Assembly: GCA_038065015.1 (NCBI GenBank)
Contig: JBBTRU010000001.1
Coordinates: 1-51,416 of the forward strand
DNA length: 51,416 nt
Source of the DNA: Patescibacteria group bacterium
GTDB lineage: Bacteria; Patescibacteriota; Patescibacteriia; PEXW01
Direction of reading: 5' to 3'
Both the position numbers and the translations under genes were made by a program. The notes below the pieces were generated by a model. The model ran no database searches and had not been told where the DNA came from. It saw nothing but the letters and a program-made list of their open reading frames with translations. Below are positions 1,508-51,416 of this stretch, in pieces (position 1 is the stretch's first letter; every line of letters begins with the position of its first letter).

Positions 1508-1510
1508 AGG

Positions 1511-2770: not shown

Positions 2771-2804
2771 GCCTTATATTCTACACGATTTTCTATATCT
2801 CTGC

Positions 2805-4849: not shown

Positions 4850-4857
4850 AGGTGTGT

Positions 4858-5457: not shown

Positions 5458-5469
5458 AGGGCGGTGGGG

Positions 5470-8048: not shown

Positions 8049-8051
8049 ATG

Positions 8052-8519: not shown

Positions 8520-8522
8520 GGC

Positions 8523-22836: not shown

Positions 22837-23626
22837 TCGTGTTCGTATTTTCTTTGAGCGCTTCTTGGAGGGCTTGGTCGTAGACGGCGCGCAGGGTGGC
22901 GTCGTCATAGCTGTTCAAGGTGGTTTCGTCCACGCCGCCAGACTTGAGGAACTCGCGAATTTCCGGAATCGTCAGGTTTTTGAGCTGGTCTACCGTTAGT
23001 GAGCTATTGGTTGCGGTTGCCGTATTTGCATTGGCAGTAGTATTCGTATTCGTGGCTTCGCTGGCAACGACATCCTGATAGTTTTTGAGTAAGGTTGCAT
23101 CGTCAATGGCGTCTACTTCGGCTTGGGAAACCCCGGCAGCCAAGAGTGCTTCGCGCAATTGCTGTGGGGTTACCGTGCTCGTGCCGGCTACCGGGGCAGT
23201 ATTCGTAGTTTCGTTGCCAGCCGCGGCATTGGTGTTGCTTATAACCCCGCAGGTCTGGCCGGCTGGGCAGTTGGGGTTGGTGTTGCTGTCTACTTCTTGT
23301 TTGTCGGTCTGGCCGTCGCTATCCGAATCCGCAATGTAGGGGCTGGTATTGTAGCTGTAGAGCTCGTCGTAGTCGGTTAAACCGTCTTTATCGGTATCTT
23401 TAGCCTGCAAGGCCAACAACTCGGTATTCTGCGGCTGCGTATCCCGCTGCAATTGCGCCCGACCCGCAACAGTGAAAGGCTGCTTGAGGTTGCTACGGAG
23501 TTGAAACCCACCCAGGACCAAAGCTGAGATCCCTAGCCCAAAAATCAGCCACGCTAACCGCTGCTTGCGCTGTTTTTGCTCCGGATCACGTGGTTGCACG
23601 TCCCCGTTCGCTGGTTCGTTTTCCAT
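22826..23626 (-). CDS. Membrane-anchored protein with thrombospondin type 3 (Ca-binding) repeats
   Basis: 266 aa. TM (LAWLIFGLGISALVLGGF). TSP3-like DTDKDGLTDYDE and DSDSDGQTDKQEVDSNTNP. T/N-rich low complexity follows. First gene of the operon. Confidence 0.6.
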   Translation of the reverse strand: MENEPANGDVQPRDPEQKQRKQRLAWLIFGLGISALVLGGFQLRSNLKQPFTVAGRAQLQRDTQPQNTELLALQAKDTDKDGLTDYDELYSYNTSPYIADSDSDGQTDKQEVDSNTNPNCPAGQTCGVISNTNAAAGNETTNTAPVAGTSTVTPQQLREALLAAGVSQAEVDAIDDATLLKNYQDVVASEATNTNTTANANTATATNSSLTVDQLKNLTIPEIREFLKSGGVDETTLNSYDDATLRAVYDQALQEALKENTNTNGS

Positions 23627-38409: not shown

Positions 38410-40158
38410 CTACTTCCGTTGTTTCTTGCGTTTTATCTTCTTCACCTGCCGGTCGACCAAATCGTCTATGCGCTTGCGCACTTGGGTAATATCTTTTCGA
38501 ATTTGCTCGTGGGTGGCGGCTTGCATGGACCGTTCGGTGACGCTCGACCGGATAGCGCCAACAATATCTTTCTCCAAGCTCGACTGCAGCCGGTCAATTT
38601 CCTGGTTTATCTGGTCTTCGGCGGTAGTAAGATCAAAACTCTCGGCGCGCTGCCAGTGCCGAAAGCGCTCGTACAGAATGAGGAGCATAGCCAGCAATAG
38701 CAGAATGATGACCAGCAAAAAAATGACCAGGCTCACCGAAGGTACCAGAAAGCCAAAAAGCTGCACGGTAGTGCCCAACGTGTGCATGGTAGCCGGAACC
38801 GACGGTGGGCTTTCAATGCCCTGGCGGTTGATGGCTATCGCCGTAAGGGTGTGGTCGCCCGGCGCGAGGAATGGTTTAAAGGTGTAGCGCCACAGCGTGT
38901 GGCCATCGGGAATCGTTATCCGAGGTGCCGAATCAATGCGGTAGGTGTCGCTGCGAAAACGCGCACTCTCTTTCCCGTCAATGAGGAGAATAATGGTATC
39001 GCCCTGCAGGGTAAGGCCCTCAACCGGCAATTCTGCAAAAAGCGTGAGTTTCTTCGGCACGGAGGTCAGGCGGGGGGCCGGACTGCCTTCGACATTGAAC
39101 TGGCCAATTGCTTCGCGAATGTTCCCGGCGGCATCAATGGCCCGCAGGGTAAACTGGTGTATGCCCGACTTCTGCGTTTCCATGACGTGCGGGCTGGTGA
39201 CGTTGGTAAACTCCTGCGTGTCGAGTGCGAGCATGTACCGCGCCACGCCACTGCCGCTATCCGTTGCTTCAAAAACCAGGCGGTAGGTGGGCGTGCTCGC
39301 ATCCGGTACGGCATTCACCTGCGGGGTAAAACTTTCGGGCGGCTTGGTATCCACGCGTATGCGCAGGTGTGCGGCACTCGACCAGCCGGCACTGTACTTG
39401 GCCCGCAAGTGGAAGTACCACACGCCATCCGCCACGTCGTCGTATTGCCGCGTGCCGCTATTTTCCTCTAGGTTTTCATCGGGTACGGTGCTGGCATTCT
39501 GGTCGAGCAGGTAGCTCACGCCCTGTATACCGGTTGGCTTTGTCCAAGTGAAAACACTATCGTTGAGGTTGTACCAAACACTCGCATCGGGGTGCGTCGA
39601 AGACCGAACAACGGGTGTCGGCGTGCCCGGCGTGGGGGTGGGCGGCGGTACGGTGGGTTCCGCGGCTTGGGCTGCACCAATGCTCAAGGTCACGCTGCCA
39701 TAGGCGGTAAGAATGTTCGTGCCCAAACCGTCGTTGGCCAAAATCGTGCCCGAGGCATAGGTGAGGGCGGCTTTGCCCTCGGCCTTGGCTTTAAAGGTTA
39801 TGGTAATAATGCTGCGGCCCGTGCCTTTGTACCCCGGGGAGGGTAAGCCGCCACCAAACGTCACCGTGCCGTTGCTATTTGAGTACGCCGGCTCGGTAGT
39901 CCAGTACGAGAAGAGACTCCCCTTACTCACGCTGGTTACCTGCAGCTTGTCCGCCGGGAAACTCACCTTGCCCTGGCTGGCATTCATGGCTTGGTCGTTG
40001 CTGCGCGCGATAACCGAAACCGTCGTGGTCTTGCCAACGGTAAGGTTCGTTGCTGCAGCCGACAGGCCAAGGGTTGCAGCACTCGCACTTTGCCCGAACC
40101 AGAACGCAAAACCGAAAGTGAGGAGCGCGACCAAGGCTACACGGAAGGGGCGTGGCAT
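38410..40158 (-). CDS. Cohesin-domain protein, C-terminally membrane anchored (paralogue 3)
   Basis: The start is set at ATG 40158 (MPRPFRVALVALLTFGFAF), 3 nt after the upstream stop. Signal peptide. Cohesin-like module (LTVGKTTTVSVIARSNDQAMNASQGKVSFPADKLQVTSVSKGSLFSYWTTEPAYSNSNGTVTFGGGLPSPGYKGTGRSIITITFKAKAEGKAALTYASGTILANDGLGTNIL). The STHPDASVWY..WYFHLRAK module follows, then Ig-like repeats, a TM (LVPSVSLVIFLLVIILLLLAMLLIL) and a basic coiled-coil tail. Confidence 0.65.
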   Translation of the reverse strand: MPRPFRVALVALLTFGFAFWFGQSASAATLGLSAAATNLTVGKTTTVSVIARSNDQAMNASQGKVSFPADKLQVTSVSKGSLFSYWTTEPAYSNSNGTVTFGGGLPSPGYKGTGRSIITITFKAKAEGKAALTYASGTILANDGLGTNILTAYGSVTLSIGAAQAAEPTVPPPTPTPGTPTPVVRSSTHPDASVWYNLNDSVFTWTKPTGIQGVSYLLDQNASTVPDENLEENSGTRQYDDVADGVWYFHLRAKYSAGWSSAAHLRIRVDTKPPESFTPQVNAVPDASTPTYRLVFEATDSGSGVARYMLALDTQEFTNVTSPHVMETQKSGIHQFTLRAIDAAGNIREAIGQFNVEGSPAPRLTSVPKKLTLFAELPVEGLTLQGDTIILLIDGKESARFRSDTYRIDSAPRITIPDGHTLWRYTFKPFLAPGDHTLTAIAINRQGIESPPSVPATMHTLGTTVQLFGFLVPSVSLVIFLLVIILLLLAMLLILYERFRHWQRAESFDLTTAEDQINQEIDRLQSSLEKDIVGAIRSSVTERSMQAATHEQIRKDITQVRKRIDDLVDRQVKKIKRKKQRK

Positions 40159-40160
40159 GG

Positions 40161-41534
40161 CTACTTCGGGGGTGGCTGCGGGCCAGAATCCTGCTGGTGC
40201 CGGGCCTCGGCGGCAATCGAGGCTTCGAACTCGCGGGCAACTTGAATAGTCTTGGCCAATTCGGATTCTTTGGCGAGAGTTGCGCGTTCGAGCTTTACCA
40301 TATCGTGGATAACATCCACCGGCCGGCGGCGCCAGCGCAAAATGAGCCACACCGCTAGCACGAGCGCGAGCACGCCCAAGCTAATGATGGCAATATTCGT
40401 AATGTAGGTGTTCCGCAACAACGGGTTGCGCTTAATAACCGGCTCGGTTTCGGGGGCGTGGACGGTAAAGAGAATTTTCCCGTCTGTCGAATTTCCGGCC
40501 TGGTCAAAGGCGCGAACAATGACTTCGTACTCACCCACCGAGACTTCGGGCAAACGCACCGGGCTGGTCTGCTCCACGAAAAACGGCGTGGTTTGGTTTG
40601 GATCTTTTAGGGCTTGCGTTTGCATTTCGTAGTGCTCGATGCCAGACATGGCGTCGGTGGTAAGAAACTTTAACTCGGGACGCTTGCCCGGCTCCGGATT
40701 TTGCGGGTCTATGCTGGGTGTAAAGCCGGCCGGGGCCACGCTATCAATAAGCACCGGGTAGTGGCTGGTGCCGCCCCAACTAGTCACTTTGGCGCGCACA
40801 TGGAAGTACCAGCGGCCGTCTTTATCGGCTGACACCTCGGCGGTGCGATTGACCGTCGCATCCGCGCGTTCGGGCGGGGTGGTGCGCGGGTTCTGGTCGA
40901 AAACGTAACTATAGCCAGTGGCATTGATAATGGCTTCCCACGCAAATTGGGCCGACCGGTTCTGGTACCAGGCGTTCTGGTCGGGATGGGAGGCAGACGA
41001 AACAATCGGCCCTTCGGGTGCGGCCAAGCTCAACGTATACGTGGCGTCGCCACGGGAAGTGAGGATATCTGTCCCCTGCCCGTCATTGAGAAGAATTTGT
41101 GAAGTGCTCTGAAAAGAGAGCTTCGCCGACCCAGCTGACGTGGCCCGAAAGGTGATCGTACTAATAATCCCGGCATCGGTTTTAATACCCGGGTTCGGTA
41201 ACCCGCCCTGGAACGATATCGTGCCCGCGGTGTTGGAGTACGCCGGCTGGTTAACCCAAATGGAAATAAAAGAGGTGCCCGCGCTCGGGTTGACCACTTG
41301 CATGCGGTTAGCCGGGAATTTTATATCAACTTTGGCGGCATTAATAGACTTGCCGCCGGTATTGAGCATGATGGATACGTTGAACGTACTCCCAACGGTA
41401 AAACTCCCGCTTGCCGGACCAAAGAGCAAACTTGCGCCTTCGAGGGCACGGCTCGGTGCGGGAGCGACGCTGGCAACCAGAACCGCGAGCGCGAGACCAA
41501 AGAAAAATCTTGGTATGTGATGTTTAACCTCCAT
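40161..41534 (-). CDS. Cohesin-domain protein, C-terminally membrane anchored (paralogue 2)
   Basis: 457 aa. Signal peptide. Cohesin-like module (FTVGSTFNVSIMLNTGGKSINAAKVDIKFPANRMQVVNPSAGTSFISIWVNQPAYSNTAGTISFQGGLPNPGIKTDAGIISTITFRATSAGSAKLSFQSTSQILLNDGQGTDIL). ASHPDQNAWY..GRWYFHVRAK module. TM (ITNIAIISLGVLALVLAVWLIL). Confidence 0.65.
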   Translation of the reverse strand: MEVKHHIPRFFFGLALAVLVASVAPAPSRALEGASLLFGPASGSFTVGSTFNVSIMLNTGGKSINAAKVDIKFPANRMQVVNPSAGTSFISIWVNQPAYSNTAGTISFQGGLPNPGIKTDAGIISTITFRATSAGSAKLSFQSTSQILLNDGQGTDILTSRGDATYTLSLAAPEGPIVSSASHPDQNAWYQNRSAQFAWEAIINATGYSYVFDQNPRTTPPERADATVNRTAEVSADKDGRWYFHVRAKVTSWGGTSHYPVLIDSVAPAGFTPSIDPQNPEPGKRPELKFLTTDAMSGIEHYEMQTQALKDPNQTTPFFVEQTSPVRLPEVSVGEYEVIVRAFDQAGNSTDGKILFTVHAPETEPVIKRNPLLRNTYITNIAIISLGVLALVLAVWLILRWRRRPVDVIHDMVKLERATLAKESELAKTIQVAREFEASIAAEARHQQDSGPQPPPK

Positions 41535-41564: not shown

Positions 41565-42680
41565 CTACCTGCGCCGACGGACTATGTATACCGCCATCCC
41601 CGAACTCACCACCAGGATGCCGCCAATAATGAGAATGAGCAGGTGCGACGAGCGATCGGGCGCGAGACCAGAGCCGGCCAGGGTGACCGCCCGGGCATTG
41701 CCCGCCGCATCATAGGCTGTGACGACAATGGCCGCGCGCTGCTTCTGGTCGAGCAAGGTATAGGGGCTTGCAGCATTATCTGCAACCACGCTGCCTTCCT
41801 GCACGGTGTAACGGACAATATCCGAGGTTTCGTCCGTCGTTTGGAATACGAGCGCGAGCTTTCCCGGTATGACATCGCGGGTAAGCACCGGGGTAAACCC
41901 TTCGGGCATAACCGTGTCTACGAGTACGCGGCGAATGGCAACGGTCCGCCAGGCATCACCGGGCAATTTTTCGCGAAGAATAAAGTAGTGCGCCCCATCC
42001 TGCACGTCGGTGAATGTTGCTTCGGCCATCGCCGTGCCAAAGCGCTCATCCGGCAGGGCAGCGGGTTCGTCTGCCAGGAGGAAGGCGTAGAGCGCGTCTT
42101 TGGTGGGTGTCCAGGCCAGGGCCACGTTGCCGGCGTTGTACCAAGCATTCTCTTGCGGGTGGGTGCTCGAAACCAAACTTATGCTGCTATCGTTTACGCC
42201 CACGGTTACCGTGCTGGTTTCCGCCCGCAGCGGCGTGGCCGTGCCGAGGCCGTCGTTCAACCGCACGCTCGAAAGCACCGTATCCACGCCAATAGTCGTG
42301 GCGCCGAGCACCTTGGGCCGGAACACCAGCGAGAGGACGCGGCCGTTAATAACGTAGCTGCCGTTGGGCACGCCGCCGACGAAAGACACCACGCCCGCAA
42401 CCGCGTCGACCTTTGGCCCTTCGGCCCAGAGCGTCAGGAACGAACCGGCTTTCGACACGTCAACAACTTCGAGGGCGGTTGGATCGTACGTGATCTTGCC
42501 TTCCACGGCGTTCACCACTTGCGTTTCGCTGTTGAGCCGCACCTCCACAACCGCCAGCTGGTCTTGGGCCGCGTTTACCTTTGCCGGAATAACGGAAAGT
42601 ACTGCCGCCGTAGCACGGTGCTGTGCCAGCGTGAACGCGAGTATGGCGAGGGCAAAAATGGAAAATAATCGGTTGCGCAT
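41565..42680 (-). CDS. Cohesin-domain protein, C-terminally membrane anchored (paralogue 1)
   Basis: 371 aa. Signal peptide. Cohesin-like module (LAVVEVRLNSETQVVNAVEGKITYDPTALEVVDVSKAGSFLTLWAEGPKVDAVAGVVSFVGGVPNGSYVINGRVLSLVFRPKVLGATTIGVDTVLSSVRLNDGLGT). STHPQENAWY..GAHYFILREK module. TM (HLLILIIGGILVVSSGMAVYIV). Confidence 0.65.
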   Translation of the reverse strand: MRNRLFSIFALAILAFTLAQHRATAAVLSVIPAKVNAAQDQLAVVEVRLNSETQVVNAVEGKITYDPTALEVVDVSKAGSFLTLWAEGPKVDAVAGVVSFVGGVPNGSYVINGRVLSLVFRPKVLGATTIGVDTVLSSVRLNDGLGTATPLRAETSTVTVGVNDSSISLVSSTHPQENAWYNAGNVALAWTPTKDALYAFLLADEPAALPDERFGTAMAEATFTDVQDGAHYFILREKLPGDAWRTVAIRRVLVDTVMPEGFTPVLTRDVIPGKLALVFQTTDETSDIVRYTVQEGSVVADNAASPYTLLDQKQRAAIVVTAYDAAGNARAVTLAGSGLAPDRSSHLLILIIGGILVVSSGMAVYIVRRRR

Positions 42681-42691
42681 AGGTGTATGGG

Positions 42692-43549
42692 TTACTTCTG
42701 GCCAGTCCAGAAGTACAGCATAACGCTGAAATCAATAATATTCACGGTGGTGTCATGATTTATGTCTGCCCGGGCATTGGCAGGATTTTTTTGCAGCCAG
42801 TAGAAAAGCAGGATGCTGAAGTCAATAATATCCACATTCCCATCCTTGTTAATATCCGCATCAATGTACCCGGCATCCGGGTTCGTGATGCTCGCCACCG
42901 TAAATGCCACGCTGTTGCTGAACTCCGAAATGAGCCCTTCCGGGTCTTCGGCTTTGGACCGAGCCACGTGATCACCCGCCTTCAGGTCATCGGCAAAGAG
43001 CTGCTTGGTCCAGAGCCCGTCCGTGCCGGCTTTGGTGGTGTATTCCCGCTCGGTATCGGAAGCGACAAAAACGTGAACGTTGCTACTCGGGCTGGTAGCG
43101 CCAAACACCGTCACGGTTTCGCCAAAGGTGAGCGTCGTACGGTCGGCCACAATCGTCGGTCCCAAAAAAATCCCGGTTATCGTCACGGTCGTGCCGGTGG
43201 TAAGCGTTACCGTGAAGCTCGAAGTCGGGCTCTGGCGGCTCTGGCCATCCGTGGCAAAAATCCCAAAGGTGTACGTGCCGGCAGTCAGGCTCCCCACGGT
43301 AATATCAAAGCGCGCCTGCGGGTCGGCCGGTACTTGCACTGTGGTCACGCCGTCTTTTTGAATGGTGACGGTAGACGACGGGTAGGCTATACCTTTAAAA
43401 ATAACCGCGGTGGGCGGTGGTTCGGGCGGGATGGGACTCGGCACAGTTGCGGTTACCGAAATGTCTATGGCCTGCGCCGGCACCGCGGCAAGCAAAACAA
43501 AAATTGCCGCCAGGATTGCCAGTGTCCGGTACCAGCGGCCGGTACGCAT
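42692..43549 (-). CDS. Secreted Ig-like protein with C-terminal dockerin
   Basis: 285 aa. Signal peptide (LAILAAIFVLLAAVPAQA) and a beta-rich body. The C-terminal dockerin (DNA ~42707..42862) reads DADINKDGNVDIIDFSILLFYWLQKNPANARADINHDTTVNIIDFSVMLYFW. Confidence 0.75.
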   Translation of the reverse strand: MRTGRWYRTLAILAAIFVLLAAVPAQAIDISVTATVPSPIPPEPPPTAVIFKGIAYPSSTVTIQKDGVTTVQVPADPQARFDITVGSLTAGTYTFGIFATDGQSRQSPTSSFTVTLTTGTTVTITGIFLGPTIVADRTTLTFGETVTVFGATSPSSNVHVFVASDTEREYTTKAGTDGLWTKQLFADDLKAGDHVARSKAEDPEGLISEFSNSVAFTVASITNPDAGYIDADINKDGNVDIIDFSILLFYWLQKNPANARADINHDTTVNIIDFSVMLYFWTGQK

Positions 43550-43556
43550 GCACTTG

Positions 43557-44594
43557 CTAAACTATCCCCTTCGGCGGATTTTGGTTCTTCCCAGCCTGGG
43601 CTTTAGAAATAACCCACTTATTGTACCGCTTGATGAGGATGATGAGCAGCACCAGTAAAATGACGAAGCCTAGGCCCCACGCCAGCAGGACGTGCCAGGG
43701 GAACACCATAAACGTCGTGGTTGCCGTGGTCGCAACGCCGCCCGATTGTCCTGCGGTGAGCGCGAGGGTGGCCGTGTACTTGCCGAAGCCAAAGTTTGCC
43801 CGTTCGTTACTGTATTCTTCCCAGAACTTGGCCCAGGCATTACTGGCCGTTGCTAGTACTGTACCTTTCTCCCACGTTACATCGTAGCTGCGGGAAGACT
43901 TTGGCAAGGTCGAACGTTTCGTGGGGTTTACGGCAAGCGTAGCAGCGACTTTCTTGCCCATGCCCGTAATCGTCACGTTACCAGACGGTTTCAAGTGAAT
44001 GTTCCCAGTGTTCTGGTAGTCAATGGTAAAGCTCACCGGCATGCGGTTCGTCCGAGATACGGTAGTGAATGTGGAAATTGCGGCAGACTCCACAACATCA
44101 CCTTCAATACGTACCAGCAATAACGTACCAATGCCTTGCGTAATAGCAACTTGCGGCTTGTCTGTACCCGTGGTCGGCGGCTTGGAAGAGAAAGCAACAA
44201 TACCATAGTGCCCGCCCGGGGCGGCATCGGCCGGCACATTCACGGTGATGGTTACTTCTTTTCGCCCTTGCGGTTCCAGAATTATTGGTGCGGGATCCAG
44301 CTTTACCCAGGTGGCGATATCTTCTTTAGGTACTGTAAAATCATAAACCGGTATGCCTTCTTCCGACCCAGAAGTGAAGGTAGTGGCGTCTAAGAATAGC
44401 TCTTGCTTGGTCGCGCCTTCGTTGTAGAGCTTGACGACAAACTCGGCCTGGTTGCCAGGTTGAACGGTGAACTCGATGGAGGGCGGGCTAATGGTGAGCG
44501 CCTTTGCGGGCAACGCCCCGCTCAAGAGGCCAACAATGCCGAATGCAGCGGCGAGGATTCCAGAGAAAATGAATTTATTTTGCTTTCTAGCCAT
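43557..44594 (-). CDS. Cell-surface protein, DUF916/CscA-like architecture (signal peptide, beta-sandwich body, C-terminal TM + basic tail)
   Basis: 345 aa. LTISPPSIEFTVQPGNQAEFVVKLYNEGATKQ..WVKLDPAPIILEPQGRKEVTITVNVPADAAPGGHYGIVAFS. C-terminal TM (VLLAWGLGFVILLVLLIILI) then KRYNKW. The assignment rests on architecture and motif resemblance only. Confidence 0.4.
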   Translation of the reverse strand: MARKQNKFIFSGILAAAFGIVGLLSGALPAKALTISPPSIEFTVQPGNQAEFVVKLYNEGATKQELFLDATTFTSGSEEGIPVYDFTVPKEDIATWVKLDPAPIILEPQGRKEVTITVNVPADAAPGGHYGIVAFSSKPPTTGTDKPQVAITQGIGTLLLVRIEGDVVESAAISTFTTVSRTNRMPVSFTIDYQNTGNIHLKPSGNVTITGMGKKVAATLAVNPTKRSTLPKSSRSYDVTWEKGTVLATASNAWAKFWEEYSNERANFGFGKYTATLALTAGQSGGVATTATTTFMVFPWHVLLAWGLGFVILLVLLIILIKRYNKWVISKAQAGKNQNPPKGIV

Positions 44595-44728
44595 AGGTTT
44601 GTCTAGTCAAAACTACCCCCATACTATAGCACATTCTTGGTTGGTTCCCTATCGTGACGAAGGACAAATACCTGGAGTGCCCATTATGAGGCCTTCAGGC
44701 AATGTCCATAATATTCACGCCAAGTACG

Positions 44729-45880
44729 TTAAAAAGTACCGGTGGCGATGTAGGTAATTGTTGTAGTGTATGCACCAGCACCAGTCGACCCAACAATGTT
44801 TGCCAATGCGCTCACGGTTAATGTTTCCGTATTCGTAGCAACGGCTTCAGAAATGAGCGTGGTTGTCGTGCTGGCCACGTAATTGAAACTCGCGGTGGCA
44901 TCTCTTTCGTATCCACTTGTGGGAGTTGAATCACCGTCTGTGCTAACACTAATACCAAAGGTGGCGGTAGTACCGGGTGCGCCATCACTATCATTGGTTG
45001 TGCTGTTATTCGGAATCGTGCTTGGACCGCCTAGTGATGCACCATTGTAAGTCACGGCCCAACCAGACGCAGCGTTTGTCGCAACCGTCATTGTGTGGGC
45101 TGCATCAGGAATGGTCGTACCATTTGGGGCAGCAGATCCGGTTGTTCCAGTCGCCCAACGGGCATTTGCTGTGGTTAGTGTACCGAATCCAATTGTATTA
45201 TCATCAACGGTAAAAGTAATCGAGGGGTCAACTGTGGCCGTCACTGCAACCTGTTCATCAGTGATAATTGAGATTGAACCTGACCCGCTATCATCGGTTG
45301 CACCCAGTTCAGTGGTAATGTCCACATCATAGTTGCCGGCAGTACCGTTTGTTATTGTGCTGGTTGACCCACCCCCACCCGAGGTCGCACCATCACCGGC
45401 AATAAGTTTTACGCAACGGCCAGCGGTAACTTCGCCACTTGTTGCATCGGTCGGGGCCGTAAGGGTAATAGCCTGGCCCGTTACATCAACACCCCAGGTC
45501 GCAGCAGCTGCGGTCAGTGACAGGGTTTTATCCACGTAGGTTAATCCACCATTGAGACACGTACCGTTTGCAGTCGAAACCTCAAAGTCAAAGTTGACGG
45601 CAGCTTCGGCAGCCAAAACTACACCAGAATCAAAGGTGTAGGTAATCGTATCGGTAGATGCATCTACGCCAGTTGGAATCGTATGGTAAATGTTGACGCT
45701 CGTGGCAGCGATACTGGCCTTAACACGCTTTTGCTCCCATGAAATCTGCCCTAGGGTAGCGGCCTGTGCTGGATTAATAGGCGTAAGAAAAGCCAGCAAG
45801 GCAAATATTGCAACAACGGCTACGGCTTTGCGAGCCGGTCCATGCTTGGTCAGCAATGCGATGATGGTTTTCATAGCCAT
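44729..45880 (-). CDS. Secreted surface protein with WxL-like C-terminal domain
   Basis: 383 aa. Signal peptide (VAIFALLAFLTPINPAQA). The C-terminal ~170 aa (SITFTVDDNTIGFGTL..AASGWAVTYNGASL..GAYTTTITYIATGTF) is colinear with the C-terminus of ORF 46335..51416. GC and codon usage are lower than in neighbours. Confidence 0.45.
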   Translation of the reverse strand: MAMKTIIALLTKHGPARKAVAVVAIFALLAFLTPINPAQAATLGQISWEQKRVKASIAATSVNIYHTIPTGVDASTDTITYTFDSGVVLAAEAAVNFDFEVSTANGTCLNGGLTYVDKTLSLTAAAATWGVDVTGQAITLTAPTDATSGEVTAGRCVKLIAGDGATSGGGGSTSTITNGTAGNYDVDITTELGATDDSGSGSISIITDEQVAVTATVDPSITFTVDDNTIGFGTLTTANARWATGTTGSAAPNGTTIPDAAHTMTVATNAASGWAVTYNGASLGGPSTIPNNSTTNDSDGAPGTTATFGISVSTDGDSTPTSGYERDATASFNYVASTTTTLISEAVATNTETLTVSALANIVGSTGAGAYTTTITYIATGTF

Positions 45881-45918
45881 TCGGGGCTAAAGTAAGGGTT
45901 TTTATTACGACTGAAAAT

Positions 45919-45947
45919 AGTATAGCACGGATTACGAAAAAAGGCAA
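45919..45947 (-). promoter_or_regulatory. Candidate sigma70-type promoter of the 383-aa surface protein gene
   Basis: Minus strand: TTGCCT-tttttcgtaatccgtgc-TATACT, with a 17-nt spacer and a TGc extended -10. It lies 38 nt upstream of the ATG at 45880. Confidence 0.4.
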
Positions 45948-45954
45948 ACCTAGG

Positions 45955-46330
45955 CTACGCCCCTCTCTCGCCCTTCCTGCCCGCCATTGCTAACGCTCAG
46001 GCGTTGCAGGCGGGCGGGCACCTGGGCGCTCCCGATGGGTCGCACCCGCCTACGGCTCCCCCCAAGGTGGGAGAGTGATGAAAAGTGTTAACCCCCCCTC
46101 TCCCTCGGGAGAGGTACGGGTGAGGGGATGACGAGTGTGGCTCTGTCACACCTCCCCTTAGTCCCCTCCTTCGTAAGGAGGGGATAATTTCTAAGCATCC
46201 TCCCCTGCGAGTGGAGAGGATGTTCTAAGGTCTCCCTCTCCGCTTGGGGAGAGGGACCAAGGGAGAGGGGTTCAAAGAAAAATATCCCCTCCTCTCGGAG
46301 GAGGGGTGGCCAAAGGCCGGGGTGGTATTA
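45955..46330. repeat. Array of non-identical GC-rich hairpins (families 1-3), directly 3' of the giant gene stop
   Basis: cctgcccgcc..aacgc-tcag-gcgtt..ggcgggcggg (about 45977-46018). Family-3 unit at 46021-46075. cctctcc-ctcg-ggagagg (~46097-46114). cccctcctt-cgt-aaggagggg (46163-46183). catcctcccc-tgcgag-tggagaggatg (46196-46222). tccctctcc-gcttgg-ggagaggga (46233-46256). cccctcctc-tcg-gaggagggg (46286-46306). Confidence 0.75.
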
Positions 46331-46334
46331 TTTT

Positions 46335-49300
46335 CTAGAACGTCCCCGTGACAATGTACGTCACGGCGGTGCTGTACGCGCCAGGCAGCGTGGTTGCAGC
46401 AATGTTGCAAATGTAATACACGCTGGCCGTTTCGGTGGTGGGCGTGGCCGTGGCTTTAGAAAGCAGCGGCGTGGTTGTACTCGGTACAAACGAGTAGTTG
46501 TTGCTGGCTTGCTGGTTGGCCGACGGGATAGTGCCGCTGCCGTTTGTGGTAATCGCCAGGGCAAATTGCTTGCTGTTGGGCGTACCATCGGCATCGCCGG
46601 TGAACGTGGCCGCGGTAATCGTTTCTGGGCCGACCAGGTTAGCGCCATTGTAGCTAAGGGCGTAGCCTTCAAATGCGCTGGTGGTAATAGCTAGGGTGTG
46701 GGCGGCCACGGCGCTAGCCGAACCCGTTGCCCCGGCATTGGCCCAGGTGGCGGCCGTGGAAGAGAGCGTACCAAACCCGACTGCCACATCGTTAATAACA
46801 AAGGTGAGGGTGTGGATATTCCAGCAGTCGTTGCCGCCAATGTCGTGGCTCGTGCCGTCGCTGGCGTCAATGTCTGGAGCTTGGCCGCAGGCGTTAGAGT
46901 CTTTTACTTCTGTATACGTTACCGCCCGCGTACCCGCCACGTTCACATTCCACTGCGTGCCGCCGGTGGAACTGCGCAAAGCCACGCGCGTACCAGTGGC
47001 TTGGCCATTGAGGGTAAGATTTTGCAACGTGTACGTGCCACCGGCCAAGAAGCGCAGCTTGGTACTGGCCGTGCTGGCGTTAAAGGTGCTGGCTGTATCC
47101 AGTGCTGCAGCAAAGATGACGGACGGTGAAGTCACCGGATCCGATCCCGAAGCATTGGTAATGATGAGGTTGTTAAACCGGTCATTGGCGCCCGTGAGTT
47201 GGCCATCTACGGTCTGCTGGCTGCCGCCATCCAGCGTGACTGTGCCACTGCCGTCGGTGAAGTCGCCGTTGTTGGTCCAGTTACCCGCGACGTTGAATGC
47301 CGCCGTGGATGAAGCCTGCAGTGTCGTGCCAGCGCCAATCGTCACGGCGCCGTTGACGTCTATAATCCGATCGTTGGTTTCGTTATCAACTATCAAGGAC
47401 GTGCCGCCATTAGTGGTAGACAGCGTATTTGCCACAATGGTTTGGCCAGTACCCGTGGCATTGAACGTGATTGTGGGCGTGCCGGATGAGGCCGTGAACG
47501 TAAGGTTGTAGAACGTCCAGTTGGTACCCACGGCCACGTTGGTGCCAAAGCTCTTGCTGGCACTCACACTCTGCGTGAAAGTATTGGTGCCAGCACTGTT
47601 CATGGTAATGGTGCCGCAGGTGGTAAGGCACTGCACGTTGCCATTCACCGTGACATTGGCTGTGCCGGCAGCCGTATTAAACGTACCCGCAGTCATAATG
47701 AGGTCATTCGTTACCGTCAGGGTATTCGTCAGTGGCGACCACGCCCCGCCCGAACCGTTGAACGTAACGTTGTAAAAATTCGATGCGCCATTATTTATGG
47801 TGTGGCCCGTGTCGGTTGCCGTGAACGTGGCGGTGGAGGTGTCGTACGTAAAAGTGTTGCTGTTCAACCAGTTGCCCCCAACGCTGATGGCATTTGCGTC
47901 GGCGGTCCAAACGCCCACGTTTTCCACGTGGTTTGTGGTTACGTCAGCGCCACCGGCTGATGCCGGACGGAACGTATCGCCAGACGCAACGTAGAGCTCT
48001 TCCTGCGAAGACTGTACTTCTGTATCAACGGTGAGGTCGTTGCCCGCGCTGACTTCCCAGAAAACGTCGTCATCGCCGCTGGCAACCGAGTTGTCATATT
48101 GGCCAATGTCCGCATTGGTAAGCGTCTGGTCGTCCACGCTGCCAATGGTGAAGTGTTCTTTGAAAAGTGTCACGCCGGTTATATCGCCCGTGCCGTCATA
48201 CTTGGCCACTGCCCCGGCCCGGTCGGCCATGGTGGCCGCCGCGTCTATCCATATGGTTACAATCTGTCCAGAGGTTACCGACACGCCAGAGATATCCCAG
48301 GTGCCGGCAATGCTGGTATCTTCCTGGGCTTGGACAGACCCGTTGACCGCAACTTTCACAGTGCCAACGTCGGTGCAGTCCGTGCTTTGGTCATAGGCGT
48401 CGCACGTGCCAGAAATAGTTATACCGCAGGTGGCACCGGCGCTCACGCTCCAGTTGGTGTTGCCGCCGCCGGTTTCGGTGGAAAAAGTGGCACAGAACGC
48501 GGCACCGGTATTATTAGAATCCGATACCTGCACGTACGTGACCGCTGCCGCCGTGGGATTGATAGTCCACTGGGTTGGCGAGCTGGATGACTCGAGGGTA
48601 ATTTTCTTCCCCGAGAATCCAGTAATCGTCCACGTACCCGACACGGTCTGGGTGGTACTGGCAGTGAAGCGGAGGGTGCGGCCGGCCGCATTCGCCGACG
48701 TGGACGCGTTGAAATTATTGAAGGTTGTGCTGCCCGAAAGCAGTTGCGTCGAAGCATCGGCACCGTCGAAGGTGACGGTTCCGCTGCGGGCAGTGAACCC
48801 GCCAGAGTTTGCCCAGTTCCCGGCCACGTCAAGGTTGTAGTTTGAGCCCGACTTCGCGTCGAGGGTTGCGCTGGCGCCAATGGTCACGTTGCCGCCGACC
48901 CCATTTGAACCCGTCAGATCGCCCGAGAGGTCATAGGTTTCCGCGCCAGCCACCTCCAAATTGTTGTACGTCGTGGTGGCGACGTTCACATTCCCCCCGG
49001 AATTCGTTGCTGTGTATTTCACCGTGGAATTGCTATTGGGCGTAAGCGTACCAGTCACCGTGAATACAGTAGCCGTCGCTCCGGCCTTCGCCAGCATCAA
49101 TGTGTAGCCACTGCTCGCCAGGTCCAGGGTATCGCCAGTCTGAATGTCTGCACTATCCCCAGTCATACTGGATGCGAGTGTCACTTTATCATTAGCGCCC
49201 ACACCGCTGGTTTTGTTGAAGACGACGGTGCCAATATTCTGCGGAGTGCCGGTGCTATCGGTGTAGGTCGCGGCCGTGGTGCCATCGAAGGTCCAGGTGC

Positions 49301-51416
49301 CGGTCCCTTTCATCACACTACCGGCTGACGCAATGGAAACATTCTTCGCAACATTCACATTCGGGTCGTTCGTATCAATATCCAGCGCCCCGTCGGTGAG
49401 TGTGAGGTTGCCAGCCACAATCAAATTGCCAGAGATAATACAATCATCGTTGCTTGTGCCGGCATTCTTACATTCGAAGTTATAGAAAGTCTGGCCGTTG
49501 GTAATTATAGTCTCGTGGGCATTCGTGGCGGCCGTGCTATTCATGAACACCGTCGAGTTCGTGTACGCCGTAAGCGTACCCGACATGGTCCAGTTGCCGC
49601 CCACGTCCATAATGGTGCCGTCACCTTCGTTACTCCCGCCGCTGTCCGTTAGGTCGAGCGTACAGGTACCCTGGCAATCTACGTGGTGGGTTACCGTCAC
49701 GTCGTAGCCCTTGGTATTCAAGGTGTCGGTGGTGTGAATGTTTAAGTTCTCGACGCTGGTATCGCTCGAAAGCGTCACCGTGCTGGGGCTTTGGCCAATT
49801 TGCAGGGTGCCCAGATTCTGCTTAGTTGCATTCGAGTCCGTGTAGGTCATGGTCGTTCCATCCAGGATGAAGACACCCGAGCCGCTGGCTTTGGTAAACG
49901 TGCCGCCGCTAGCAATGCTCACCGTAGCGCCTGTAAGAACGACGTTCACATTGGCGCCTTGCTGGAAAGTGGCACCGTTGGCAATGGAGTAGGCACCATC
50001 TGCTTGCATGGCAGTGGAGTTCGTCACCGTGCCCGTGCCCGAAACCGCAACGGCGTTGAACGACGAGCTGCCGTTGAGCGTGCCGGAGAGCGTCTGCGTG
50101 CCGGTACCGTTGAAAGTTACCGTACCGCTGCTGTGCGTGAACGTCCCGTTGTTGGTGTAATCGCCCTTAAGGTTAAGCGCGCCGCTACTAGGCGCAGTGA
50201 GGGTATTCCCCGTGCCAATGGTGGTTGCCCCACCGACCGTAAAGGTCGGGTTGTTCGTAACCATATCTATAGTGACTGTTCCGGTGCTCGTTTTGGTCAG
50301 GCTCAAGGCACCACTTAAGGTCACCGTTCCCAAGTTTACCGTCAGGGTGCGATTGGTAGCGCCGGTGTTGTACGCTTCTACATCCCCGTAGTCTGCCCGT
50401 GCGCTCAAAGTCTGCGCCGCATTGGTCATGTCCATGCGCAAGATGAGCACGGCGGCAAGCGTACCCGAAGTTGGGAATGCCGTGCCGCTCTGGTACGTGA
50501 GCCGGCCCGGACCGTTGAGCGTACCGCTAAGGGTGAGCGTGGCACCGGTGTGCGTAAGGGTGCGCCCGCTATTTATGGTGAGTGCATCACTGGCCGCAAT
50601 ATCCAACGTGTTTGAAACTATAAGATCGGAAGTTTGCAAAGTAATAGTACCGGCCGAGCTGGGATTAATGGTGAGGCTATTGAGCGTGAACCCGCCTCCG
50701 GTAATATTGTTGGACGTGCCGGTCATCGTCACCGTGGACGTGCCCGGGGTCACGGTACCGCCGAGCACGAGGTTGCCGTTCACAGTGTGCGTGGCATTGG
50801 CCAGGGTAATGGTTCCGGAGAGCGTGAGATTTTGCAGGGTTTTACCAGCACTCGTTAAAGTCTTGCCCGCACCGTTCATGACCAGCGTATTCCCGGCTGC
50901 CGCGGTCAGGGCCCAACAATTGGTCATCGTAAAGTCCCCCCCAATGGTCCAGGTGTTCGTGCCGGTAATAACTGTTGCCCCGTTCTCTATAGGAATGGTG
51001 CAGGAAAAATTTCCTAACGCTGTGAAAGGCAAATTATTCGTGGCCCCGGTGAGTATGGGGTCAATACTAACATTCCCAACGGTCACGTTCCCGTCCGCGT
51101 AGAACTCGCCCAGCGTATAGGTGGGAATACCAAGCCCCGTCGGGTTGAAGGTGACGTGGTGGTAGTAGTTGCTCGCCGAGGTGGTCGTCCCCACGGTGGC
51201 ACTCGTAATGTTACTGTAGTTGAACGTGGACGTACTACCCGTGAGCCGGCCATTGTTCACAAATGGCGCACCCGTGGCCTTGAGCTGCCAGGTCTTGCTG
51301 CCCGCATTGAGGTACGTGTAGTACGTGGCATCCGTCGTGGTGGTGAGCACGCCGTTAATGGTCATGCCCCCGACACCCAAGGCTGTGGTCGTCTTATCCG
51401 CGCCAGCACCGGTAAT
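46335..51416 (-). CDS. Giant T/G/N/S-rich beta-helix-type surface protein with WxL-like C-terminal domain (5' end beyond right edge)
   Basis: The frame is open from the stop at 46335 to the last base of the window; upstream of the track's TTG 'M' it reads ITGAGADKTTTA in frame, so >1,693 aa. Degenerate ~20-25 aa G-x-T-[LV]-T/N-x-G repeats run throughout. Two longer modules end in W-x-[IV]-N..V-[TS]-Y-x-x-V-x-D-S-N. The C-terminal 170 aa (LTFVINDVAVGFGTL..FEGYALSYNGANL..GAYSTAVTYIVTGTF) are shared with ORF 44729..45880. Confidence 0.7.
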   Translation of the reverse strand: MTGAGADKTTTALGVGGMTINGVLTTTTDATYYTYLNAGSKTWQLKATGAPFVNNGRLTGSTSTFNYSNITSATVGTTTSASNYYHHVTFNPTGLGIPTYTLGEFYADGNVTVGNVSIDPILTGATNNLPFTALGNFSCTIPIENGATVITGTNTWTIGGDFTMTNCWALTAAAGNTLVMNGAGKTLTSAGKTLQNLTLSGTITLANATHTVNGNLVLGGTVTPGTSTVTMTGTSNNITGGGFTLNSLTINPSSAGTITLQTSDLIVSNTLDIAASDALTINSGRTLTHTGATLTLSGTLNGPGRLTYQSGTAFPTSGTLAAVLILRMDMTNAAQTLSARADYGDVEAYNTGATNRTLTVNLGTVTLSGALSLTKTSTGTVTIDMVTNNPTFTVGGATTIGTGNTLTAPSSGALNLKGDYTNNGTFTHSSGTVTFNGTGTQTLSGTLNGSSSFNAVAVSGTGTVTNSTAMQADGAYSIANGATFQQGANVNVVLTGATVSIASGGTFTKASGSGVFILDGTTMTYTDSNATKQNLGTLQIGQSPSTVTLSSDTSVENLNIHTTDTLNTKGYDVTVTHHVDCQGTCTLDLTDSGGSNEGDGTIMDVGGNWTMSGTLTAYTNSTVFMNSTAATNAHETIITNGQTFYNFECKNAGTSNDDCIISGNLIVAGNLTLTDGALDIDTNDPNVNVAKNVSIASAGSVMKGTGTWTFDGTTAATYTDSTGTPQNIGTVVFNKTSGVGANDKVTLASSMTGDSADIQTGDTLDLASSGYTLMLAKAGATATVFTVTGTLTPNSNSTVKYTATNSGGNVNVATTTYNNLEVAGAETYDLSGDLTGSNGVGGNVTIGASATLDAKSGSNYNLDVAGNWANSGGFTARSGTVTFDGADASTQLLSGSTTFNNFNASTSANAAGRTLRFTASTTQTVSGTWTITGFSGKKITLESSSSPTQWTINPTAAAVTYVQVSDSNNTGAAFCATFSTETGGGNTNWSVSAGATCGITISGTCDAYDQSTDCTDVGTVKVAVNGSVQAQEDTSIAGTWDISGVSVTSGQIVTIWIDAAATMADRAGAVAKYDGTGDITGVTLFKEHFTIGSVDDQTLTNADIGQYDNSVASGDDDVFWEVSAGNDLTVDTEVQSSQEELYVASGDTFRPASAGGADVTTNHVENVGVWTADANAISVGGNWLNSNTFTYDTSTATFTATDTGHTINNGASNFYNVTFNGSGGAWSPLTNTLTVTNDLIMTAGTFNTAAGTANVTVNGNVQCLTTCGTITMNSAGTNTFTQSVSASKSFGTNVAVGTNWTFYNLTFTASSGTPTITFNATGTGQTIVANTLSTTNGGTSLIVDNETNDRIIDVNGAVTIGAGTTLQASSTAAFNVAGNWTNNGDFTDGSGTVTLDGGSQQTVDGQLTGANDRFNNLIITNASGSDPVTSPSVIFAAALDTASTFNASTASTKLRFLAGGTYTLQNLTLNGQATGTRVALRSSTGGTQWNVNVAGTRAVTYTEVKDSNACGQAPDIDASDGTSHDIGGNDCWNIHTLTFVINDVAVGFGTLSSTAATWANAGATGSASAVAAHTLAITTSAFEGYALSYNGANLVGPETITAATFTGDADGTPNSKQFALAITTNGSGTIPSANQQASNNYSFVPSTTTPLLSKATATPTTETASVYYICNIAATTLPGAYSTAVTYIVTGTF

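Follow-up and report, generated by a model that had tools for sequence, protein, structure and literature searches.

The window analysed here, a 51,416-nucleotide stretch from a CPR (Patescibacteria) bacterium, carries on its minus strand genes for a giant surface protein, a 383-aa pilin, a 345-aa chaperone-like protein, a 285-aa dockerin protein and three cohesin or cohesin-like proteins (Table 1). The giant's reading frame runs to the window end with no in-frame stop, in line with the >1,693 aa of the sequence-only reading, and the complete protein has 3495 aa in the gene call for the same locus in GCA_964362715.1 (contig CAYIFJ010000016.1). At the N-terminus of its full-length orthologues lies a hydrophobic stretch, either signal or anchor. 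The passenger region of the giant gave no sequence match in Pfam, NCBIfam, PHROG or PDB. For the beta-helix named in the sequence-only reading, composition is the only pointer: Thr (19%), Gly (12%), Asn (9%) and Ser (9%) abound, charged residues make up 9.7%, and this suggests a solenoid fold. The hairpin past the giant gene and the promoter-like site before the pilin gene were obtained by consensus scan only.

Table 1. Features of the putative pilus locus, in window coordinates.
Feature	Position	Strand	Evidence
Giant surface protein, 3' part, proposed tip adhesin	46335..51416	-	ORF open to window end, at least 1693 aa
Pam-pilin-type acceptor domain of giant, without preceding donor strand	46338..46811	-	NF058581 E=2e-9; 43% identity to that of pilin
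Terminator-like hairpin directly past giant stop codon	46286..46306	-	9-bp stem, 7 GC pairs, then T run
Cassette of ~1.5 kb: terminator, intergenic region, nearly whole pilin gene	44780..46311	-	blastn gap against L073
Promoter-like site 5' of pilin gene	45919..45947	-	TTGCCT, 17-nt spacer, TATACT; TG precedes second hexamer
Pilin, 383 aa, proposed major subunit	44729..45880	-	NF058581 E=7.5e-13; AF2 model; homologues
Donor-strand linker EQVAVTATVDP joining both pilin domains	45224..45256	-	Conservation in 35-sequence alignment
Pam-pilin C-terminal acceptor domain of pilin	44732..45223	-	NF058581; BLASTP to giant; alignment
Membrane-anchored chaperone-like protein, 345 aa, PamC/D-like, WxLIP homologue (DUF916-DUF3324-TM)	43557..44594	-	AF2; Foldseek; hhalign; PF06030
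TM helix of 345-aa protein	~43629-43694	-	AF2 model
Dockerin protein, 285 aa, proposed pilus terminator/anchor adaptor	42692..43549	-	Dockerin_1 32.9 bits (cutoff 22.9); Big_13 34.5 bits
Donor-like strand IDISVTATV at mature N-terminus of 285-aa protein	43442..43468	-	Motif test in homologues
Type I dockerin of 285-aa protein	42719-42856	-	Dockerin_1
Cohesin-like protein, 371 aa, C-terminal TM helix	41565..42680	-	Cohesin 22.6 bits, just below 24.1 cutoff; chaperone-dockerin protein-cohesin synteny
Cohesin protein, 457 aa, C-terminal TM helix	40161..41534	-	Cohesin 33.1 bits (cutoff 24.1)
Cohesin protein, 646-aa ORF (582 aa in gene call), C-terminal TM helix	38410..40350	-	Cohesin 30.8 bits, above cutoff

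A colinear C-terminal domain common to the giant and the 383-aa protein had been noticed earlier, and BLASTP bore this out: the last ~160 aa align up to both C-termini with 72/166 identities (43%, E=5e-25). These were the only two copies that tblastn found in the window. The NCBIfam model NF058581 ('CPR_Pam_pilin_C') matched the domain in the 383-aa protein (E=7.5e-13, 48.8 bits) and in the giant (E=2e-9, 37.7 bits), both below the curated cutoff of 55 bits; a homologue that shares 49% identity with the pilin described here (locus L007) scored 83 bits, above this cutoff. At the sequence level these comparisons show membership of the shared domain in the family of Pam pilin C-terminal (acceptor) domains. 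The sequence-only reading had instead proposed a WxL domain, naming an unrelated fimbrial family as the contrary outcome, and a fimbrial-type acceptor domain is what was found. PF13731 (WxL) gave no match to it even at E<=10, hhalign against 19 verified WxL domains returned 1-2% probability with the last strand alone aligned, and WxL HMM scores were no higher than those of shuffled or reversed sequences. With no WxL signal in any of these tests, the WxL identity is not supported.

Pam pili are usher-free extracellular donor-strand-exchange threads of CPR bacteria, whose pilins consist of an N-terminal sandwich, a donated linker that is among their most conserved regions, and a truncated Ig-like C-terminal domain; their polymerisation has been seen by cryo-EM (Troman et al., bioRxiv 10.64898/2026.03.03.709456). 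Two NCBIfam models (NF058581 and NF058579) are tied to these pili, and structures of PamA and PamB are available (PDB 25PZ, 25QA). The 383-aa protein shows this full layout, with a signal peptide (residues 1-40), a beta-sandwich N-terminal domain (~41-208), a linker (209-219) and the C-terminal domain (220-383). Its AF2 model (pLDDT 87.1) has two all-beta domains with the unstructured linker between them, and Foldseek searches of the whole model against a PDB set lacking 25PZ and 25QA gave generic Ig-like matches only. Among the best conserved stretches of 35 aligned pilins are the linker and the first part of the C-terminal domain (consensus DDQVxVTATVDPTITF), and all 35 contain the donor motif. 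There are 251 pilin homologues, and every one with a named source comes from CPR/Patescibacteria or an unclassified 'bacterium'. Upstream of the acceptor domain of the giant, the donor motif was found in 0/24 giant ORFs from the fetched loci (a set that includes four assemblies of this same locus), its place being occupied by a Cys-containing junction, '..C..DA....N.CW'. Since the giant has an acceptor domain and no donor strand, it is probably a tip adhesin, a role to which motif absence and synteny both point.

The 345-aa protein had been described as a signal peptide, a beta-sandwich body and a C-terminal TM segment with a basic tail, and its AF2 model (mean pLDDT 83.8) agrees. An N-terminal signal helix is followed by two beta-sandwiches (~33-136 and 155-297) with a low-confidence loop between them (144-153), a helix (300-336) and the basic tail. 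The suggestion that it is a DUF916 protein also held. PF06030 (WxLIP_PGBD, i.e. DUF916) matched the window protein at 20.5 bits (E=5e-4), below its 27.3 cutoff. Of the 33 members of the family, it matched 23 at E<=0.01, with 9e-8 as the best value. A family profile run against PDB sequences had EfmWxLIP1 as top hit (E=3.4e-4), and an hhalign comparison with 11 bona fide WxLIP proteins returned a probability of 98.2% (E=5e-14) along 217 columns that take in both domains, with controls at <=1.3%. That alignment covers the PF11797 domain, for which Pfam itself gave no match; no NCBIfam model matched the protein. The best PDB folds by Foldseek were E. faecium WxLIP (9i25_C, E=8e-12, and 9i1y; both ~1e-11), and the top matches also included RbmA and three chaperones, CfaA, CsuC and CupB2 (E 3e-9 to 4e-7). 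The 345-aa protein is thus shown to be a two-Ig-domain, C-terminally membrane-anchored WxLIP homologue that shares its fold with chaperone-usher chaperones. PamC/D are described as chaperones that resemble PapD/FimC and carry a C-terminal TM helix (bioRxiv 10.64898/2026.03.03.709456), and by analogy with this description the protein would be a pilus assembly chaperone, one related to a system for surface proteins in Gram-positive gut bacteria. Against this, WxLIP is thought to retain WxL proteins at the surface and not to pass them on.

In the 285-aa protein a signal peptide and an N-terminal donor-like strand precede a Pro-rich spacer; two Ig-like domains follow, and then a type I dockerin that has two DxNxDGxIDxxD-like repeats. 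The motif [VIL]x[VIL][ST][AG]x[VI] lies between signal peptide and first Ig domain in 38/45 homologues, compared with a background of 1.9% of 70-aa windows (shuffles: mean 1.1, maximum 6 of 45; binomial P ~1e-58). The donor strands of pilins and dockerin proteins did not covary within loci (permutation p=0.19). Carrying the strand at its mature N-terminus and having no acceptor domain, this protein is proposed to cap the base of a fibre and stop its growth. That it would be a terminator which clips the pilus to the membrane through the TM-anchored cohesins is about an even call. No such role was found in the literature searched, and the Pam preprint names neither cohesin nor dockerin.

Gene order was compared across 78 related loci from GTDB species representatives. 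A chaperone homologue was present in 75, mostly 3' of the pilin gene(s), and a dockerin protein in 44, together with a cohesin in 43. In 40/78 loci the dockerin protein came immediately after the chaperone, and the order chaperone, dockerin protein, cohesin was kept in 38/78. In 22 of the 24 loci with a giant, the pilin came directly after it. The complete arrangement runs from the giant through pilin(s), chaperone(s) and dockerin protein to the TM-cohesins, and it is found repeatedly among CPR lineages.

The sharp contrast in third-position GC (GC3) reported for the two genes with the shared domain was reproduced, with 0.692 in the giant (0.708 in the domain) and 0.435 in the 383-aa gene (0.409 in the domain). 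Neighbouring genes have 0.61-0.72, so the 383-aa gene is the outlier. This dip is peculiar to this genome, the mean pilin-minus-neighbours difference over 64 loci being -0.017. Against the closest relative (L073), blastn aligned 47876-46312 and 44779-41698 and nothing in between. Identity to this relative is 86% for the C-terminal domain of the giant, 80% for the chaperone, 84% for the dockerin protein and 68-77% for the cohesins, and only 33% for the pilin. Judged from this alignment, the pilin cassette is a foreign allele swapped in for the former one, and replacement of the ~1.5-kb segment would account for the low GC3. Of the two explanations offered earlier, different histories is supported by the break against L073, and a difference in expression level is not needed.

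The NF058581 matches in two domains, the pilin layout, the chaperone and the gene order together indicate that the region is most probably a Pam-type pilus operon, recognised here from its genes alone. We infer the tip and terminator roles from whether a short motif is present and from synteny. All operon proteins would be exported by Sec, with the membrane-tethered chaperone covering the open groove of every acceptor domain. The giant, which can take a strand and cannot donate one, is proposed to nucleate the fibre and to come to lie at its distal tip as adhesin. The 383-aa pilins would then join at the base, each QVAVTATV linker entering the acceptor domain of the subunit before it, until the 285-aa protein closes the base and halts growth. 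Its C-terminal dockerin would enter the cohesin on one of the three proteins with a TM anchor and so fix the fibre to the membrane.

The Pam system of Ca. Mycosynbacter amalyticus shares with the window the pilin layout, a TM-anchored chaperone of PapD-like fold, the lack of an usher and, among named homologues, hosts that are CPR only. It has a linker-less tip, PamT, and a strand-donating terminator, PamR (bioRxiv 10.64898/2026.03.03.709456), for which the window offers the giant and the 285-aa protein as candidates. There are differences: both domains in the window fall short of the curated NCBIfam cutoff, one pilin gene stands in place of PamA, PamB and PamE, and the tip candidate has ~3500 aa whereas PamT is a single domain. 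Pam homologues are mostly from Saccharimonadia and Microgenomatia (bioRxiv 10.64898/2026.03.03.709456), while the named ones of the window are from Kerfeldbacteria, Nomurabacteria and Paceibacterota-type MAGs. Instead of a TM helix the terminator candidate has a dockerin, accompanied by three TM-anchored cohesins, so that dockerin-cohesin anchoring would take the place of the TM-anchored PamR; the neighbouring genes thus suggest a version of the Pam pilus fastened to the cell by a cohesin-dockerin clip. The donor-strand complementation and exchange logic is that of chaperone-usher pili (Pap, Fim, CFA/I, Csu), where the tip adhesin, a passenger plus a pilin domain, accepts without donating and a PapH-like terminator donates without accepting. 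Unlike these, the window system has no usher or outer membrane, its chaperone is membrane-tethered, the pilin donor strand is internal and anchoring is via cohesin and dockerin.

An arrangement without any pilus, in which the 345-aa protein is the permanent anchor of a Csc/WxL-type complex (Lactobacillales, Listeria) and its strand completes both C-terminal domains, is unlikely. It would fit the homology to WxLIP over both Ig-like domains with the common TM helix, the AF2 prediction that a Firmicute WxLIP strand fills the gap in the WxL sandwich (PMC10599100), and the habit of WxL clusters of joining two proteins with a common C-terminal beta domain, one small and the other large or giant, to one WxLIP (e.g. 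the 1671-aa WxL protein in L087). However, the shared domain has neither WxL signal nor the double Trp-x-Leu motif and matches the C-terminal domain of pilins that polymerise. The highly conserved donor strand of the pilin would be superfluous in a purely anchored protein, a donor-strand-only protein is conserved in the operon, and the host is CPR and not Firmicute, with no LPXTG CscD-like gene.

Less probable still is a cellulosome-like scaffold for polysaccharide capture, in which the shared domain would be no more than a common module, carbohydrate-binding or Ig-like, and the 345-aa protein an unrelated membrane protein. Pfam cutoffs are exceeded by the dockerin and by two of the three cohesins, CBM_4_9 and a dockerin occur together in another protein of the window, and a type I dockerin beside cohesins on cell-bound proteins recalls cellulosomal anchoring. 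Scaffoldins are held by SLH or sortase, though, whereas the window cohesins have C-terminal TM helices; the client is a pilus-strand adaptor and not an enzyme, the operon has no glycoside hydrolases or other enzymes, and a single dockerin faces three cohesins. The specific match to the Pam domain also argues against it, and it leaves unexplained why chaperone, dockerin protein and cohesin keep such tight synteny with pilins across CPR. The giant could also be displayed without a pilin stalk, the 285-aa strand filling its acceptor and docking it to cohesins while the pilin forms separate homopolymeric fibres. Pilin and dockerin protein carry the same donor motif, so either could fill the groove of the giant; moreover, a terminator-like hairpin ends the giant gene, the pilin has its own promoter-like site, and its cassette was apparently exchanged independently of the giant's C-terminal domain. 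We consider this rather unlikely, since giant and pilin adjoin in nearly all giant-bearing loci and the Pam model puts a linker-less acceptor protein at the fibre tip, although both displays are compatible and the present data do not separate them decisively. The window also encodes a 3069-aa dockerin protein elsewhere, and the cohesins may serve such other clients too.

We found that the region is made up of seven co-directional minus-strand genes, encoding a giant protein, a 383-aa pilin, a 345-aa chaperone, a 285-aa dockerin protein and three cohesin-type proteins. The best explanation, which we consider probable from the sequences and predicted models, is that a CPR bacterium here encodes a donor-strand pilus of the Pam type in one operon. 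The pilus kind itself is already known from a 2026 preprint and from NCBIfam models. To this known kind the locus type adds two things: a candidate for a giant tip adhesin, and a conserved module of cohesins and dockerin that includes a putative donor-strand adaptor.

Genes of the operon and sites within the pilin cassette
Feature	Position	Strand	Remark
Giant ORF	46335 to beyond 51416	-	open to window end
383-aa gene (pilin)	44729-45880	-	
345-aa gene (chaperone)	43557-44594	-	
285-aa gene (dockerin protein)	42692-43549	-	
Cohesin-type gene	41565-42680	-	
Cohesin-type gene	40161-41534	-	
Cohesin-type gene	38410-40350	-	
Terminator-like hairpin	46286-46306		in pilin cassette
Promoter-like site	45919-45947		in pilin cassette

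The giant and the pilin share a C-terminal domain, as the sequence-only reading had proposed. BLASTP aligned the two colinearly with 43% identity over 166 residues (E=5e-25), reaching both C-termini, and no third copy was found in the window. The whole giant had no match in Pfam or NCBIfam and the shared domain was detected only when scanned alone; for the passenger region, nothing came from PHROGs, from a sequence search of the PDB or from a search for tandem repeats, so the beta-helix label of the sequence-only reading gained no support. Complete giants begin with a hydrophobic signal or anchor segment. In another assembly of the same locus the gene call for the giant is 3495 aa long. When the assemblies were compared (L003 vs L002, both 1-9546), the giant was a single 3495-aa product in one and two genes (1965 + 1530 aa) in another that comes from the same site; a frameshift, a difference in assembly or genuine variation could lie behind this.

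Scanned alone, the pilin copy of the domain matched the NCBIfam model NF058581 (CPR_Pam_pilin_C) with 48.8 bits (E=7.5e-13) and the giant copy with 37.7 bits (E=2e-9); these matches are significant but fall short of the 55 bits set as curated cutoff. Because a full-length homologue in the related locus L007, which shares 49% identity with the window pilin, reaches 83 bits and so exceeds this cutoff, the assignment of the shared domain to the Pam pilin C-terminal family is probably sound. Pilins of about 480-500 aa with the linker ESVRVTATVDP were also seen (L075, L077, L079-L081, one of them a Collierbacteria MAG). They match NF058581 weakly, at 20-25 bits, so the model misses much of the family's diversity.

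The module had previously been taken for a distant analogue of the Firmicute WxL surface complexes. For comparison, 19 WxL and 11 WxLIP proteins were taken from plasmid-borne clusters of Lactococcus, Lactiplantibacillus, Listeria, Enterococcus, Vagococcus and Melissococcus. Neither copy of the domain matched PF13731 (WxL) in Pfam even at E<=10; ten of the 19 WxL proteins were checked in the same way, and each of them carried it. With hhalign, the shared domain reached a probability of 1.3-2.1% against the 19 WxL domains and the last strand alone was aligned. HMM scores in both directions were the same as those of shuffled or reversed decoys. With all three comparisons negative, a WxL identity of the shared domain is not supported by sequence. 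The three colinear motifs behind that proposal do exist and can be picked out by eye in single WxL proteins, but they score no higher than shuffled sequences and, as sequence, are not statistically separable from a T/S-rich beta-strand background. Dual Trp-x-Leu motifs are absent: at the corresponding positions the window pilin reads G-W-A-V and T-Y-I-A, and the pilin family consensus at the first of them carries Tyr (SGYAxTYNG).

The AF2 model of the pilin (pLDDT 87.1) has the two-domain Pam layout of N-terminal beta-sandwich, linker strand and C-terminal Ig-like domain, in which about ten strands fall in residues 44-206 and eight in 221-381, and the linker between them (207-220) is unstructured. 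The linker and first strand of the C-terminal domain, DDQVxVTATVDPTITFT, are among the best conserved stretches of a 35-sequence alignment with 40-64% overall identity, and the consensus of linker and C-terminal binding region is near invariant. The window pilin resembles Pam pilins in this strong linker conservation, as conservation there is reported to be highest in the donated linker and the C-terminal binding region (10.64898/2026.03.03.709456). A PDB sequence search with the pilin, as single sequence and as profile, returned no WxL, Pam or Pap/Fim chain. Foldseek with the full-length model gave generic Ig-like matches alone, because the two-domain arrangement dominates.

The 345-aa protein had been described as a signal peptide followed by a beta-sandwich body, a C-terminal TM segment and a basic tail. 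Its AF2 model (pLDDT 83.8) agrees: behind a signal helix stand two beta-sandwich domains, and the chain ends in a helix (300-336) and a basic tail. The operon encodes a PapD/FimC-like chaperone with a C-terminal TM helix. The further proposal that this is a DUF916/DUF3324 protein held for DUF916. The window chaperone scored 20.5 bits against PF06030 (WxLIP_PGBD, formerly DUF916; Pfam cutoff 27.3), and 23 of 33 chaperone family members matched it at E<=0.01. The best sequence match of the family profile in the PDB was EfmWxLIP1 (E=3.4e-4). Foldseek ranked E. faecium WxLIP (9i25_C, 9i1y) at the top, with E ~1e-11 and TM 0.57, followed by RbmA and then the chaperones CfaA, CsuC and CupB2; our literature search found no paper for PDB 9i25. 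Finally, hhalign of the CPR chaperone family with the 11 WxLIP proteins gave 98.2% (E=5e-14) over 217 columns spanning both domains, against <=1.3% in 12 control comparisons. PF11797 (DUF3324) itself had no Pfam match in the chaperone. Because five lines of evidence tie the chaperone to WxLIP, its WxLIP identity (PF06030, PF11797 and TM helix) holds at superfamily level.

To place the operon among related loci, one genome per GTDB species was scanned with the pilin alignment, yielding 78 loci, many of them cut by contig ends, so that all counts are lower bounds. Chaperone homologues were present in 75 of the 78, usually after the pilin gene or genes, and pilins in 65. Homologues of the 285-aa dockerin protein occurred in 44, together with cohesins in 43; the chaperone gene was directly followed by the dockerin gene in 40 loci, and the order chaperone, dockerin protein, cohesin was seen in 38. 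In 24 loci the shared domain forms the end of a protein of >600 aa, whose gene lies directly upstream of a pilin in 22.

We then looked for donor strands in these components. An 11-column matrix derived from the pilin linker was too specific, its 'DP' end lying in the acceptor domain, and a 7-residue core motif, [VIL]x[VIL][ST][AG]x[VI], was used. Of the 45 members of the 285-aa family, 38 carry it after the signal peptide and ahead of the first Ig domain, compared with 1.9% of background 70-aa windows and a mean of 1.1/45 in shuffles; two of the seven members counted as motif-less also carry it, the scan having misplaced the anchor. The strand reads IDISVTATV in the window protein and QVTVTATV, LNVSVSAIV or DLNISAQV in others. 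Behind it come a Pro/Gly-rich spacer, a pair of Ig-like domains and a type I dockerin. No donor motif precedes the C-terminal domain in any of the 24 giant ORFs of the loci examined (four of which are assemblies of the window's own locus), and a Cys-containing junction stands in its place. Covariation of pilin and adaptor strands within loci was not significant. The operon is thus composed, by motif content, of a putative acceptor-only giant, an acceptor-plus-donor pilin and a donor-only 285-aa protein.

By the logic of Pam and chaperone-usher pili, this distribution would make the giant the tip, the pilin the shaft and the 285-aa protein the terminator. The dockerin of the terminator would then fasten the fibre to the TM-anchored cohesins, replacing the TM helix of PamR. 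We infer these tip, terminator and anchor roles from motif presence or absence and from synteny. The dockerin matched Dockerin_1 with 32.9 bits (cutoff 22.9), and all three cohesin proteins end in a TM helix; two of them pass the Pfam cohesin cutoff of 24.1 (33.1 and 30.8 bits) and the third, at 22.6, is just under. No report tying cohesins or dockerins to CPR pili was found among the literature searched, and the Pam preprint mentions neither cohesin, dockerin nor WxL (10.64898/2026.03.03.709456). Elsewhere in the window a 3069-aa protein (13699-22908, minus strand) combines a CBM_4_9 module with an internal type I dockerin (residues 1604-1657). It is a potential second client of the three cohesins, so the cohesins may not be pilus-only.

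The closest described system is the Pam pilus of Ca. Mycosynbacter amalyticus, known from cryo-EM of one cultured species, in which the C-terminal domain of each subunit is filled by a neighbouring subunit's linker; the chaperones PamC and PamD are PapD/FimC-like and retain a C-terminal TM helix, PamT (the C-terminal domain alone, no linker) is the proposed tip, and PamR (an N-terminal strand plus TM helix) the proposed terminator and anchor (10.64898/2026.03.03.709456). Our operon differs in having no RbmA-like PamR terminator with a TM helix, as the strand-bearing 285-aa protein ends in a dockerin. Chaperone-usher pili use an outer-membrane usher, and no usher-like gene was found in the window. 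WxL/Csc clusters include a small LPXTG protein, CscD, while the operon is without an LPXTG gene; their hosts are Lactobacillales/Bacillales, while the other genes of the window and the named homologues point to a CPR bacterium. Like Pam, the pilin and chaperone appear restricted to CPR: among 251 pilin homologues (the best, from a Kerfeldbacteria MAG, 65% identical) and 269 chaperone homologues, every source-named one is from CPR/Patescibacteria or an unclassified 'bacterium'. Titles of related loci outside bulk submissions name Kerfeld-, Nomura-, Doudna-, Berkel- and Collierbacteria, Paceibacterota and Microgenomatus, the exception being L074, 'Deltaproteobacteria'. Many bulk-submitted MAGs with the operon are titled 'uncultured Gammaproteobacteria', 'Pseudomonadales' or 'Bdellovibrionales' (L014, L022, L026, L028, L030, L037, L046, L050 and others); these titles clash with the genes found there, and the records seem to be mislabelled.

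A second locus type has a pilin and three to four chaperone paralogues without a dockerin protein downstream of the chaperones (L006, L007, L009, L016, L031, L036, L048). Dockerin and cohesin genes lie upstream in two to three of these loci, and the two Doudnabacteria loci are included. In one paralogue class of this type the signal peptide is followed by a conserved 'LQVQGLGIDPFLIE'; this class may be the counterpart of PamR.

At the level of profiles and models, the homology of chaperone and WxLIP ties CPR pili to Firmicute WxL clusters. For Firmicutes, AF2 predicts that the WxL sandwich has a gap which is filled by a strand of WxLIP (PMC10599100), on the principle by which a chaperone complements a pilus subunit. 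Two Firmicute WxL clusters were seen to carry a 'pectate lyase-like adhesive domain' protein or a 1671-aa WxL protein next to WxLIP (L086 6904-8268; L087 6899-11914), so giant solenoid-type passengers on a C-terminal strand-complemented domain would occur in both systems. Pam pili and Firmicute WxL/WxLIP clusters may go back to a single ancient monoderm system, in which membrane-tethered chaperones worked with surface domains completed by a strand; common ancestry would imply that WxL clusters also work by donor-strand complementation or exchange. The joint reading, an adaptor-anchored Pam pilus together with common Pam/WxL ancestry, is tentative, and we put it somewhat below an even chance.

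CPR bacteria live as obligate epibionts, and little is known about the way they get to their hosts and hold on to them. The donor strand of the adaptor may, in many of their lineages, plug the last pilin and its dockerin plug into membrane-anchored cohesins, with a solenoid adhesin of several thousand residues at the distal end; a cohesin-dockerin pair may thus serve as a pilus anchor. If true, the Pam system reaches lineages beyond those stressed in the preprint, giant 'orphan' CPR surface proteins gain a concrete role as pilus-tip adhesins, and there is a testable anchor route from donor-strand adaptor through dockerin to TM cohesin. It could also explain cohesin and dockerin modules in non-cellulolytic CPR bacteria. 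The strong chaperone-WxLIP homology bears on the preprint's open question of Pam pilus origin and suggests a mechanistic re-reading of WxL clusters in enterococci, listeriae and lactobacilli. Such clusters matter for virulence and colonisation.

The sharp difference in third-position GC between giant and pilin genes, noticed in the sequence-only reading, was borne out on quantification: GC3 is 0.69 in the giant and 0.435 in the 383-aa gene, with 0.61-0.72 in the other genes. The dip is peculiar to this genome: pilin minus neighbours gives a mean GC3 difference of -0.017 across 64 related loci, and expression-linked codon bias as a general property of pilin genes was rejected. Of the two causes offered for the contrast, different histories is the supported one. 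Compared with L073, the closest sampled relative, amino acid identity is 86% for the giant C-terminal domain, 80% for the chaperone, 84% for the dockerin protein and 68-77% for the cohesins, but 33% for the pilin. Nucleotide similarity stops at 46312 and restarts at 44779, within the last ~16 pilin codons; between these points (window 44780-46311, L073 9783-11059) there is none, though both flanks are 72-79% identical. From this break it follows that a foreign allele has taken the place of a cassette of ~1.5 kb, comprising the terminator-like hairpin, the promoter-like site and the pilin gene. Among known pilins, those of Kerfeldbacteria stand closest to the new allele, and the downstream junction, in the conserved last strand of the pilin gene, is a plausible recombination site.

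In another part of the window (2805-7368, minus strand) we observed type IV secretion system-like genes, with T4SS_pilin (PF18895) in a 437-aa ORF and a TraG/VirB4-type P-loop ATPase in a 632-aa ORF. These agree with the conjugation-like T4SS reported for Patescibacteria.
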